Source of the DNA: Carpediemonas membranifera BICM
Taxonomy: Eukaryota > Protista > Fornicata
NCBI GenBank assembly: GCA_019828565.1
Contig: JAHDYR010000007.1
Span: 967,531-1,031,530 of the forward strand
Length of the DNA: 64,000 nt
Direction: 5' to 3'
The notes under the pieces are model-generated. The model ran no database searches, was not told the origin of the DNA, and saw only the letters and a program-made list of their open reading frames with translations. Of the stretch, positions 13,616 through 49,319 are shown piece after piece. A program made the position numbers and the translations under genes. The number at the start of each line of letters is the position of its first letter. Positions within the stretch are counted from its first letter, which is position 1.

Positions 13616-13665
13616 TGTGGCGTTGGCTTAAAGCAAAAAGGTGTTTATCAATTGATTACTCCACA
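13616..13665 (-). repeat. 3' LTR of Gypsy A (50 bp)
   Basis: Follows the polypurine tract AGGGAGGGCAG, starts TGTGG, ends CCACA, abuts the TSD. Confidence 0.8.
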
Positions 13666-13912
13666 CTGCCCTCCCTGAGCAGCCGAGGGTGCTTCGTCAG
13701 GTAAGCTTTGGCGGCCGGCGTATGTGCAAGCGCCTCGACTGGCTCTGTCGTAATCGCGTCGGACCCGACCCAGCGGACCTTGAGTAAACCGTCGCGGGTG
13801 TGACCCACGATCTTATCTACGAACCACTCTTCTTGGTCGCTCGAAGCGAGGTAAGCGAGCTCGCTCTCTTTGAGATCCGTCTTAAGAGGTATAAGGTGAG
13901 ACAGGTGCACTG
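13656..13912 (-). CDS. Gypsy A integrase C-terminus and chromodomain
   Basis: VHLSHL, WFVDKIVGH..LKVRWVG..TTEP; plausibly continues the pol that stops at 18076 (DKGQL|TVHLSHL). Confidence 0.8.
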
Positions 13913-16900
13913 TCCATAAAGGCGACGCCCAAGCCGAAGGAGACTATCCGCACGTACCGCAAGCTGATCCAGAACACAGCACTCGCAGAGGACCTGAAGA
14001 GGGAGGGTGTCAGCGACGATACCCTCGAGAAGGTTCAGGCCCGGGCAGCGGAACTCGCCGAGGACTACGATGAGTGCATCGCGAAGGCGCTTCGCACTGG
14101 CCTGGTCACCCGACCGGGAAAGAAGGCCAAGACCCGGCAAGATGAGCCGGTTGAGCGGAAGGAGGCTCAGACATCGTCTCAAGGCGCGGGTGTACGGGAG
14201 GCCAGGTTCAAGTGTTATGCTTGTGGCGGAGTGGGTCACAAGGTTGGCCGCTGCCAGGCTAAGGATGCGGAGCTGCTCCACGGCTGGTACCGGGAGTACG
14301 ACAAGGACAAGAAGCAGTACGGCCGACTGACCCGGGGCCCTATCCCCGAAGGTCACCCGCGGTGGAAAGAAAGAAAGAAAGAAATTTATGGTGCTTGGAT
14401 TCTGACCCCGGACTGAGCTTGTTTCCCGTTGTCTTGGAGCTGAGTGCCCCGGGGTACTGCCTATTTCCCGTGGCAAACTGGTCAGCAGCGTTTGCCTTGG
14501 GCTTTCGGTGCTACTGTCTCCGCGGAAAGCCGATTCCAATCGCCCCAGAGGCCCTGCGGCCATCTCCGTGCAAATATGCTTTCCTGTCTCCCTGAAAGTC
14601 CGGCAACTATCCGGGGAGCCTGGGGGTCTGTCCTCGGGGCATTGACAGGCAGGATCACCCGCGGTGGAAGGTGCAGTCTGTAAAGGCTGAGAAGTACGCA
14701 CACACGTGGGAGTTGGTTATGGATGTTCGCGTGAATCCGAAGAAGCCGGCGGTGCGGATGCGCGTCGGCCCCGACACGCGGGCGAACGTTGCTGTGGCGA
14801 GCCCAGCCTGGGTCGCCGCACTGGTGCACGCAGGGGCACGAGAGGTCACCCCTCCGGACGACCTGGTGATCCAGACTTTCACAGGAGACGGACGAAGACC
14901 AGACAATGCGTGCGAGGTATGGATCGGGCGATCGAAGGCCCGAGGGCTCGGCACGTATGTGCAGGCACGGGTGACCGTGTATGGGTGTGCCGGAGTGACA
15001 GACACGCTGATTCCGTTCCAAACGGTCAAGGACTTGGGCCTGTTGGCAGAGGACACGGACGACGCGGACGAGGGCGAAGTAGAGGCCGAGCTAGTGGAGG
15101 AGATGTTCCGGGTGCAGCAGGCACATGCGGAACTCCGGCACAGTCTGGCCGAGAAGGACCCTCAGCTTAGCTCAATGCTGACTGAGTTCGGCGAGGTGTT
15201 CGGGCCGCTAGGGCCAGAGCCGGCAAAGGCGCCGCCTTACCCGATCGACCTAATGACGGAGCAAGAGATTCGAGAACCCGCGAGACAGCTATCTCCCGTG
15301 ATGGAAGAGGTGGCGCAGAATCAGGTGGAAGAGTGGCTCAGGCAGGGTATAGTGCGGAGGTCGACGTCCGGCTACGCGTCACCTATCGTATTGGTTAAGA
15401 AGAAGAATGGCACGTGGCGACTATGCGTCGACTACCGCCGGCTGAATGCGACAACGAAGACCCTGGCCGCGCCCGTGAAGGACGTGAAGAGACTACTAGC
15501 CCAATTGGCGGGGGCAAAGCTGTTCTCGACACTGGACCTCACATCGGGATATAATCAGTTCGCAGTTCGGGAGCAAGACCGCGCGAAGACGGCGTTCATC
15601 ACGCCGTTCGGCCTGTTCGAGTTCGAGAGACTGCCGTTCGGGTTGAAGAATGCTCCTGCGTTCTTTCAGACGGCGATGGACGACGTACTCAAGGGAATTC
15701 CCGGTGTGTTGGTATATATTGACGACATCCTGATAATGGCGAACTCACGGGAAGAGATGAGAGATCGAATCAGGACTGTGCTTGACCGACTCAAGAAGCA
15801 CGGGCTGCGCGCGAACCTGGAGAAGTGCAGGTTTGCCCAGTCGAGCGTGGAGTTCCTCGGACACATTGTCGACCAGGACGGTGTCAGGATCAGTGACGAC
15901 AAGGTTCGGGCAGTGCAAGAGTTCGAGCGGCCGACCACCCAGAAACAGCTGCGGAGGTTATTGGCTTGGCGAACTGGTTCAGGGGGTTCACCCCCGACCT
16001 AGCGATGCATTTGGCCCCACTGAATGACGCACTCAAGGACCGACAGACGGCCTGGACAGACGAGAGGCAAGCCGCGTTCAGCGATGTGAAGAGAGCGATC
16101 GCGGACCACCTGAAGCTGACACACATCGACTATAAGAAGCCGTTGATAGTCAGAACAGACGCGTCGGACATCGGTCTGGGAGGGATTCTATGCATGGAGA
16201 CGGACAAGGGCGAGGAACCAGTCGCTGTCTATAGCCGGGCGTTCAGAGGGGCAGAGACACGATGGACTGTGGGTGAGAAAGAGTGCTGTGCTATCGTTGA
16301 GTGCGTGCGGCGCTGGAGAATGTACCTACAGGGCTATCCTTTCCGCCTAGAGACGGACCATCGGAACTTGCTATATATGGAGCGGAAGGCCGCGAGTCAG
16401 AAGGTGCAACGCTGGAAGCTACTGCTGCAGGAATTCAGTTTCAACGTGGTTCACGTTGCTGGAGAGAAGAATGTAGTGGCGGATGCGCTGTCACGGGCAT
16501 TTGTACAGCAAGTAAGGAGCGATAGACCCGCTAGGACCCGTAGACCACCGCAGCGACTGATGGACGATGAGTTTTACCAGATAGCGAGCGACGACGAAGA
16601 CTCACCAGTGCAGGATAGCGCGGAGGAAGAAGTCGAAGTCGAGGAACCCAGAGAGGATCACTCTCGCGAGGCACAGGCCGACGCCGAGCGGCGCCGAGAG
16701 ATGAGCCTACGGGCATCGCGGGGCGAGCTGACGGAGGATGACAAGGTGCAACTGATCACATGGGCACACCAGGGCGAGGGCGAACACCTGGGGCGTCTGT
16801 CGACGTACCACACGCTTAAGCACAAGGGGGTACCACTGGAAGGGAATGTGGGACCAGGTGCAGATGTTTGTCTCGACCTGTACCTGTCAGAAGCTTGCCT

Positions 16901-18054
16901 CGGTCGATACTGTGAAGTTGAAGATGGGCACAGAGATGGTTGACGGCCCGATGCAGAAGGTAGCAATCGATACTATGAAGGTGACGCCGGAGAGCGAGGA
17001 GGGTCACAAGTACGTGTTCGTAATGGTGGACCTATTCTCCCGGTGGCTGGAGATCTTCCCGACCAAGGACAAGACAGCGGAGTCAGCAGCAGAGGCTGTA
17101 ACATGGTGGATTGCGCGTCACGGACCCATGAAGACTCTGCATTCCGATCAAGGGACGGAGTTCCTCAACGAGACTATCAAGGAGATCCTGCAACGTTTCG
17201 GCTCTGGCCAGACGACGACATTCCCGTACCATCCCCCTGGGAACGGAGGGTGTGAGCGGGCGAATCGCAGGGTATTATCACGGTTGCGGGGTATGGTGTT
17301 GGATTGGGGCGAGCCTGAGCAGTGGCACAAGTATATCCCCATAGTCCAGCGACAGCTGAATACTGAGTTCTGTAGCGCCACAGGGACGACAGCCGCAGCT
17401 ATTATGCAAGGCATGTTCGGCCCAGAGCCGCATGGCACTATGCCAAGGGCGGTGGAGGCGAAGATCCAACTGGACGTAGAGGAGGCGGATCAGGAGCAGC
17501 AACTATTCATACGGGACGTTCGGAAGCAAGCCAATGAGGTACAGCAGCGTTTGTTGGCCCAACGTGAGCGGCGCATGCAGGGTTGGACAGTGCCGTCCTG
17601 GACAGTGGGACAACTAGTCATGGTACTACCAGGAGTGCGAACAGCGAAGCTATTGCCGACATGGAAGGGACCGTACAAGGTTCTGGGGGTAATGGAGCAT
17701 GGATGCAAGTTGCAGAGCCTGGAGGACACAAGTTTGCAGATTGACGTTCACAATGACCGCCTGAAGTCATTCCGAGCAGATCGACTGTCGGAACAGCAGT
17801 TAGTGGAGTTGAATGGGAGAGATGCTGCAGAGCTGATGGTGCTCCGGATTACGGACCATCGGGACTCCGAGGTCCAGGGCCGTGAGTACTGGGTCGAGTG
17901 GGCAGACGGGTCCAGCTCGTGGGAGCCCTACTACGTGGTGGCTCGGCTGGAGGCGCTAGATGCCTACTTGACTGCGGGTCAGCCACGGGAAGGCGGTGTA
18001 ATGTGATATTTATAGTTGGGTCTGCCCCGCAGGTTAAAGCAGTTCATTCGTTCA
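13913..18054 (+). mobile_element. Ty3/Gypsy chromovirus B, 5'-truncated (gag CCHC-PR-RT-RH-IN-chromo)
   Basis: CYACGGVGHKVGRC knuckle, DTRA protease-like site, LCVDYR/LPFGL/YIDD RT, TDAS RNase H, DDE integrase (IDTM, SDQG, CER), chromo YWVEWADG; two single-base frameshifts (~15960, ~16830); PPT then TGTAAT at 17997. Confidence 0.9.
14368..14654 (-). mobile_element. 5'-truncated LINE copy (3' UTR plus (TTTC)n tail) inserted in Gypsy B gag-pol
   Basis: Reverse complement of ~48124-48404; flanked by direct repeat TCACCCGCGGTGGAA (14353-14367 / 14655-14669); removal restores HPRW|KVQSV. Confidence 0.9.
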
Positions 18055-48404: not shown

Positions 48405-49260
48405 CTTCTATCTCGGCCTTATAGATGGCCTTAGCCTCCTTCGTGTAGCCAATGAGCGCTAGTTCCCTGATCTTCGCGATCAGCGCGGCTTCGTGGAGCT
48501 GTTCGTAGTTCGGGGCCTCGATGGCGGGATTGATTTCATCGACGGCCTCTCGAAGGCGTTGGATGGCCACTCGGTGTGTTGCGGCCTTTCCATAAAGCTC
48601 GTTCGAAATATTGAGGGAGATGAGGCGGGCGCCGGCATCGAGTGACGGAAGCAGAGTCATGAAAAGATGGGGGGCGATCGCGTCGGCCTCGTCCGCAAGC
48701 TGCTGTCGTATGTCGGGGGCGTCGTGGCCTGACTCCTCCTCGGCAGCCGTAGCGAGCTCTTGACCGTCGCGGACTGTGGCTGCCGGGTTGCCTTCCTCGA
48801 AGACGTTCAGCAACGGCGTGTACTTCGGGTTTTCTGGGTCTATAGCGGAGACTGCTGCGTCAAATAGGGACGTGGCGCGGCGCTGGGCGGCCGCAGCCAA
48901 GGGGCCATCGGGGTGCTTCAGGGCGGCAGAGGAGGCAACGTTGAACAGATCTTCCTCTAGGAGTGCCTTGATCTGGGCCATGACGGCCTTGGAACTGACC
49001 CGATCTTCTGGCTTATGCTCTTCACGCAGAGCGCGGCGGACCTCAGCGTCCGATATCGTGTCCTCTTCCATAGCCTCGTAGGAGGCGTATTCCTTCGTCT
49101 TCCTCCAATTAGCGTGAAGGAACTCCGTCGTGGCGGGATCAAAGGTGCGAATAAGTGAAGTAGGGCGCTTCACATGAGGCAGTTCTCTCTTGTAAGACTT
49201 GATGGCCTCGGAGAGCTCATGTGCGTTTGTTACACTGACAAGCATGTTTTCGCCTCGCAT
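48405..49260 (-). CDS. Gypsy A gag, N-terminal part
   Basis: Starts 15 nt after the terminal repeat; joins across the TSD as IYKAEIE|ADGTVDSV (21780). Confidence 0.8.
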
Positions 49261-49275
49261 TGCAGTGAATTCACT

Positions 49276-49319
49276 GTTGGCTTAAAGCAAAAAGGTGTTT
49301 ATCAATTGATTACTCCACA
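49276..49319 (-). repeat. 5' terminal repeat of Gypsy A (44 bp identical to 13622-13665)
   Basis: Exact sequence match; followed on the + strand by TSD TCAG. Confidence 0.85.

Follow-up and report, generated by a model that had tools for sequence, protein, structure and literature searches.

The window analysed here is a stretch of 64,000 nucleotides from Carpediemonas membranifera BICM (contig JAHDYR010000007.1, positions 967,531–1,031,530 of the forward strand), a free-living fornicate and a relative of Giardia. Host genes fill window positions 1–13171, and beyond them mobile elements are clustered and nested in one another. We describe one of these, a gypsy long terminal repeat (LTR) retrotransposon on the minus strand; its LTRs are very short and a palindrome occupies its primer-binding position. 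Its span of 35.7 kb comprises an element of approx. 4.9 kb, comparable with whole relatives of 4.4–4.8 kb, and two nested insertions. Read in its own direction, it is preceded by a target-site duplication (TSD), CTGA (49320–49323), and starts with a 5′ LTR of 45 bp with TG..CA termini (49275–49319), the palindrome, which is perfect over 14 bp and overlaps the terminal CA of the LTR (49263–49276), and the 5′ part of gag (48405–49260, from the first ATG at 49260). Here gag is interrupted by a plus-strand insertion resembling a long interspersed nuclear element (LINE; 21796–48404), which itself holds an element of ~19 kb. The 3′ part of gag and pol follow (18078–21780), the latter encoding protease, reverse transcriptase (RT), RNase H (RH) and an integrase with H2C2 and GPF motifs, and a second gypsy element, designated E2 (13913–18077, plus strand), separates them from the integrase tail with its chromodomain (13656–13912). 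The purine-rich polypurine tract (PPT; 13666–13680) lies within the reading frame, the 3′ LTR measures 50 bp (TGTGG..CCACA; 13616–13665), and the second copy of the TSD closes the element (13612–13615).

The domain order, gag and then protease, RT, RH and integrase (by Pfam in 21480–18076, and by matches to relatives for gag), is the Ty3/gypsy arrangement, and the end features of that group, i.e. direct TG..CA terminal repeats, PPT and TSD, are present; a 4-bp TSD was also found in the relatives L011 and L012. The N-terminus of the gag product matches those of three whole relatives (P0001, P0004 and P0125). The reading frame crosses the PPT and terminates within the 3′ LTR, an arrangement found in most close relatives. 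These mostly have one open reading frame (ORF) of about 1,400–1,570 residues, whereas the gag part and pol are in different frames here, and the copy is therefore dead: it is a nested, inactive copy of a compact, chromodomain-bearing gypsy retrotransposon.

The 5′ and 3′ LTRs match over 44 of 44 bp (49319–49276 in the 5′ copy). The palindrome, CAGTGAATTCACTG (49276–49263, minus strand), starts at the last base of this shared repeat and the gag ATG stands 15 nt past the repeat; a leader of 14 nt is intact. A preliminary description of this DNA had reported the 50-bp 3′ LTR with the PPT inside and CTGA outside, the 44-bp repeat at the 5′ end, the palindrome, the distance to gag and the lack of a TGG-type site, all of which was confirmed on the sequence. 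No Rfam or tRNA matches were obtained in the window. As the window holds 21 perfect palindromes of at least 12 nt, a single one is only modest evidence by itself; that it recurs at this position in relatives is not due to chance.

To gather relatives, pol was aligned with its best matches, and 77 metagenomic loci were fetched through RT/RH peptides, i.e. blind to the leader. The close loci number 23 (L005–L027, all from one assembly); two duplicates (L006 and L016) and four loci without a 5′ end (L010, L013, L021 and L025) were dropped, which left 17 non-redundant relatives (33–54% RT–RH identity). A perfect palindrome of 10–14 nt lies within 60 nt of the gag ATG in 16 of them (0.93 expected from shuffling), and one of at least 12 nt in 14 (0.22 expected). 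Primer-related features were counted in these 16 palindrome-bearing relatives together with the present element (n = 17). The leader measures 13–21 nt in 16/17, and 2–9 nt separate the palindrome from gag in 15 of the 16 close relatives. Where the end of the LTR is defined by divergence of its two copies (L005, L011, L012, L020 and L027), the palindrome starts at the terminal CA or just within it, and L015, the 3′ LTR copy of which ends at the end of the contig, agrees with this junction. The final A of the LTR forms part of the palindrome in 17/17 elements (with an independent LTR end in six) and at all 13 aligned junctions of more distant loci. The distant loci (n = 36), a redundant set, come from a handful of families whose LTRs are much longer; CA and a palindrome precede gag in 26 of them. 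As a contrasting case, the distant relative L051 (3916–4100) has a TGG-type site of the ordinary kind after its repeat. Metagenomic contigs gave no exact match to the start of the present LTR, a collection of prokaryotic genomes gave no relative, and viral contigs yielded four distant loci.

Three features of known primer sites were looked for in the sample of 17. TGG with a complement to a tRNA 3′ end does not follow the 5′ LTR in any element (0/17). The Tf1-type complement to the transcript's own 5′ end in the LTR, approx. 11 nt in that system, is at most 4 nt long here and 4–7 nt across all 17, so that self-priming in the Tf1 mode, which had been considered in the preliminary description, is not upheld. 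A second complementary 9-mer of the GalEa type, 12–41 bp downstream, was not detected either, the best match in the 17 elements having 2–5 mismatches in nine positions. No other conserved motif was seen after the LTR in the relatives. Since the palindrome starts at the last base of the LTR and nothing else fits before gag, its position points to priming.

The symmetry of the site extends to its centre. Seven different central tetramers occur among the 17 elements, all symmetric. At the 13 aligned distant junctions, 77/77 cells are paired, with 27 two-sided changes, and the two adjacent central bases, which could not pair within one strand, covary (UA in eight, CG in five). None of 500 shuffles reached the observed pairing, a count that is not to be taken as a probability because the sequences are related. 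In ten of the 13 junctions, selected because their flanks are shared, no differences occur in the last 19 LTR bases, and the inner ten bases of the palindrome differ at 51% of sites; these ten loci have five cores, again all symmetric. Altogether, 22 distinct cores were counted in 27 elements, with at least 23 changes on the tree (L010 standing for its family member L011). Judged from these alignments, the palindrome appears to keep its symmetry while its sequence turns over fast. Reading it as a double-stranded DNA site, i.e. an initiator or a protein-binding site for gag transcription, would suit its AT-richness and its place 2–9 nt before the ATG, where compact fornicate promoters would be expected. 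A DNA site of this kind is nevertheless very improbable, given that symmetry and not sequence is kept across the 27 elements and that distant relatives hold the palindrome at the LTR edge, 38–93 nt away from the ATG.

As the symmetry includes the centre and goes beyond what a hairpin alone would demand, either pairing of two molecules or copying from arm to arm during replication would be needed. Arm-to-arm copying could occur in a single molecule that snaps back: the RNA would be cut after the palindrome and its hairpin would copy its own U5-R, the second genome serving as a later template. Such a route accounts for a symmetry that starts exactly at the last A of the LTR, and copying of the hairpin remnant would likewise enforce full symmetry. 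The hairpin, however, is barely stable, with predicted energies from 0 to −1.8 kcal/mol (0 in 13/17) versus −8.4 to −15.5 kcal/mol for the homoduplex (n = 17), and a stem of 3–5 bp closed by a 4-nt loop serves poorly as a primer; we therefore regard priming by snap-back as decidedly improbable.

We propose instead, with a probability of roughly one half, that the element represents a lineage in which the palindrome replaces the tRNA primer site and reverse transcription is primed on a dimer of the element's own RNA. Two packaged genomes would pair through the palindrome, one of them would be cut just 3′ of it, presumably by the element's RNase H in analogy with Tf1, and the 3′ end at the cut would prime minus-strand copying of the partner's U5-R. 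Plus-strand synthesis would then copy the primer, so that the daughter would receive the site as its reverse complement; only symmetric sites would survive, and an alteration of one arm could reach the opposite arm within a single cycle. Because copying of the primer would invert the site in each cycle, strict symmetry and fast turnover would both be explained. For Tf1, the cDNA's 3′ end has been reported to carry a copy of the primer site (PMC11042837; this and most other papers are cited from the available parts of their text).

Several points weigh against priming on an RNA dimer. One close relative, L026, has no palindrome and is the sole miss among the 17. In ten of the 16 close relatives and in most distant loci, the end of the LTR was placed from the CA before the palindrome and not from a second LTR copy. 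Among the 36 distant loci, the palindrome does not fit the junction in three and was not found in the fixed test in seven (three of which have one further upstream, by eye), and the last A of the LTR is unpaired in L030–L032 and L065. For the model of priming in trans, nothing evident would naturally halt plus-strand copying where the palindrome ends. The primer, the cut and the dimer are inferred, and, in a family seen in one copy, the LTR of 50 bp may derive from a longer one and be promoter-poor. Lastly, central symmetry would equally be expected of a signal for dimerisation or self-recognition alone, and such a signal could diversify fast as well. According to this last alternative, the palindrome serves dimerisation or packaging only, and the primer would be a host RNA, such as an internal fragment of a tRNA, or a protein. 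The homoduplex energies and the central covariation suit any pairing of two molecules, and family-specific cores could prevent co-packaging of related families. What makes a signal without a priming role unlikely is that the palindrome sits exactly at the primer position from the last A of the LTR, that the few bases before gag in 15/16 close relatives provide no space for another primer site, and that no further motif is conserved after the LTR; the retroviral dimer site, in contrast, exists besides the primer-binding site (PBS), lying in a loop (PMC5445492, in the part available).

The LTRs of the close relatives are short as well: 69–90 bp in 12 of the 17, 119–128 bp in two and 232 bp in one, with two unmeasured; that of L014 is 73 bp by inspection. 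Two further LTRs in the window measure 76 and 64 bp. Short LTRs are therefore a feature of the lineage, of which the present 50 bp is the shortest example seen. The short form is common to both ends of the copy and therefore passed through one round of replication. Short LTR and leader would probably follow the compact promoters and 3′ signals of the host. A TAAA motif within the LTR (13649–13643) is similar to motifs located at the stop codon or after it in four of the six host ORFs examined, and may be a poly(A) signal. In the accessible text of PMC3601003, clade means of LTR length range from 174 to 695 bp and no minimum is given. A standard survey used a minimum LTR length of 100 bp (PMC6317226, in part), so elements with LTRs of 50–90 bp have likely been under-counted. 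The minimal LTR system with non-tRNA priming that had been suggested for this locus stands as regards a small-LTR gypsy element without a tRNA site, while its non-tRNA primer stands as the likely reading only.

The 5′ LTR (49319–49275) equals the 3′ LTR minus 5 nt of a short repeat at the U5 end, with the CA terminus kept. Both LTR copies end alike at CA in all five relatives in which the end is fixed by copy divergence, and 13 of 16 relatives have a CACA end like the 3′ LTR here. For these reasons we take the unequal U5 ends to be a lesion or an assembly error in the 5′ LTR of this copy, in all probability incidental to the system. Contigs of four runs covered neither end of the element and were uninformative both on its expression and on the reality of the 5-nt loss. 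It had also been suggested that the leader was deleted in this copy or that the unequal ends were a property of the system. The copy is indeed damaged (5 nt missing at U5, two insertions and a frame break), and the palindrome could on that view be the scar of a repair that removed leader and PBS. However, the relatives have equally short leaders with a palindrome, L009 shares a 12-nt core of the palindrome and has it directly after GCCACA, and the relatives' LTR ends described above fit neither suggestion; deletion of the leader and built-in inequality are both largely refuted and hardly credible.

The presence of a chromodomain at the C-terminus of the integrase is supported by a profile of 18 integrase tails, which matches HP1/CBX5 at an E-value of 1e-9, and by the predicted structure of the tail (predicted local distance difference test score, 79.5), for which the top fold matches are chromodomains at an E-value of 0.018 or weaker. 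The tail of this element alone had no match to Pfam Chromo, and the third aromatic residue of the chromodomain cage is Ser here. In a tree of RT–RNase H with 32 rows, the close clade had a support of 100, and all palindrome-bearing rows, together with an Aduncisulcus element and P0012, were on one side of a branch supported at 99, a split repeated in a second tree. A single clade with seven rows of Tf2-SH3 type, including a Fusarium element, was rejected (p-AU = 0.005, approximately unbiased test; groups named after an earlier tree). A quick tree with 92 rows again gave 100 for the close clade and joined the palindrome-bearing lineages weakly; its palindrome labels, which covered two unverified rows (L062 and L073), do not enter any count given here. 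References for Tf1, Ty3, Skipper, Tekay, Reina and CRM were not identified among the tree rows. The element is accordingly a chromovirus, as it had been termed, by its domain content; the kinship with the Tf2-type fungal group that this name might imply is not borne out, as it does not group with Tf2-type chromovirus rows in these trees.

The closest precedent is the Conserved Hairpin Site of the fungal GalEa Ty1/copia elements, which have no PBS and for which the site was proposed as a replacement with its mechanism unexplained (PMC5445492, in part). In both systems the sequence follows right after the 5′ LTR and is palindromic once the final A of the LTR is included. GalEa elements are copia, whereas the present element has the gypsy domain order; they have a second complementary arm 12–41 bp downstream, and none was found in this lineage, where, unlike in GalEa, the core sequence changes fast instead of being conserved, gag begins within a few bases and the LTRs are tiny. 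Tf1, Tf2 and Tj1, as well as Sushi and Tcn1, share with the element the gypsy order, a chromodomain, the lack of a tRNA site and their own RNA as likely primer (PMC4600332, PMC6317226 and PMC11042837, in the parts available). In these elements, however, the PBS pairs with the transcript's 5′ end in the LTR and is not palindromic, a pairing limited to 4–7 nt here; Tj1 has LTRs of 244 bp and a TSD of 5 bp, as against 50 and 4 bp, and grouping with Tf2-type sequences is rejected by the tree test. Skipper of dictyostelids is, like the present lineage, a protist gypsy element with a chromodomain and neither a TGG site nor a Tf1-type complement, for which a novel mode of priming was suggested; compared by site features, it has a polypyrimidine stretch after the LTR in place of the palindrome (PMC5006619, available text). 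Our literature search, which did not extend to supplements, most subscription papers and Repbase entries, found neither a palindromic primer site described for gypsy elements nor any paper on LTR elements of C. membranifera, and the main text of the genome paper (PMC8516963), as available and apart from its supplements, contains neither ‘transpos’ nor ‘retro’.

Very short LTRs with a covarying palindrome at the primer position are a real and biologically meaningful design of an LTR element. More tentatively, and with somewhat less confidence than in dimer priming itself, we suggest a wide, undescribed lineage of protist chromodomain gypsy elements in which priming in trans on a palindromic RNA dimer doubles as a fast-changing code of self-recognition, with LTRs down to 50 bp in Carpediemonas. 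If true, this would add a further route to start reverse transcription to those by tRNA, half-tRNA and Tf1-type priming. The dimer model offers a testable mechanism for the GalEa hairpin site, the two-sided variants that the palindrome shows in nature provide alleles ready for testing, and the tiny LTRs show how little U3-R-U5 suffices.

The LINE-like insertion in gag encodes an APE endonuclease, ends in a TTC-type tail and is flanked by a 15-bp TSD (21781–21795 and 48405–48419). The ~19-kb element within it (23009–42208) has inverted ends of 75 bp and apparently a TA target site. It carries a protein kinase and a weak HEPN match, and inspection by eye suggested OTU-like, SET-like and chromo-like ORFs; a transposase was not recognised. 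Its left end recurs in a second copy at 53463–54896. E2, inserted in the opposite direction to its host element with ACTG at both junctions, lacks a 5′ LTR and has a 3′ LTR of 76 bp (18002–18077); it is placed among the palindrome-bearing lineages with a tree support of 87. Its gag carries a 282-bp LINE stub. The possibility that the 282-bp inverted repeat formed the ends of a Polinton-like element was rejected, the repeat being a LINE 3′ stub with its own TSD. A contig of run X3 (depth 3.3) contains the last 37 nt of the E2 LTR (18041–18077), followed by other sequence that starts as a 10-nt near-palindrome with one G-U pair, and may be the 5′ end of another copy of the E2 family; the 23 letters before the LTR part recur before an unrelated record and are adapter-like.

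Among the relatives, L007 (5671–6307) shows a tandem arrangement with one shared LTR and L005 (4628–5243) a third LTR copy. Tandem copies of Tf1 arise through a primer-site overhang, according to the part of PMC11042837 available; assembly collapse could also produce the patterns in L007 and L005. In the host part of the window, an ABCF gene has a 29-nt intron (12549–12577) that is absent from contigs of two runs; the encoded protein is 100% identical to one recorded under the name C. membranifera. Beyond the element, a minus-strand piece of a chromodomain gypsy element (E4, within 55028–59631), with the start of gag cut off, belongs to the same clade as the main element. The region also includes a TG..CA stretch of 125 bp (59138–59262) and the tail of another chromodomain gypsy element, E5, with the 64-bp 3′ LTR (59568–59631). 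Flanked by a gag fragment and a LINE RT, units of 548 bp are repeated in tandem with 99.8% identity (60194–62790); the array has 66 bp in common with the terminal region of the ~19-kb element.

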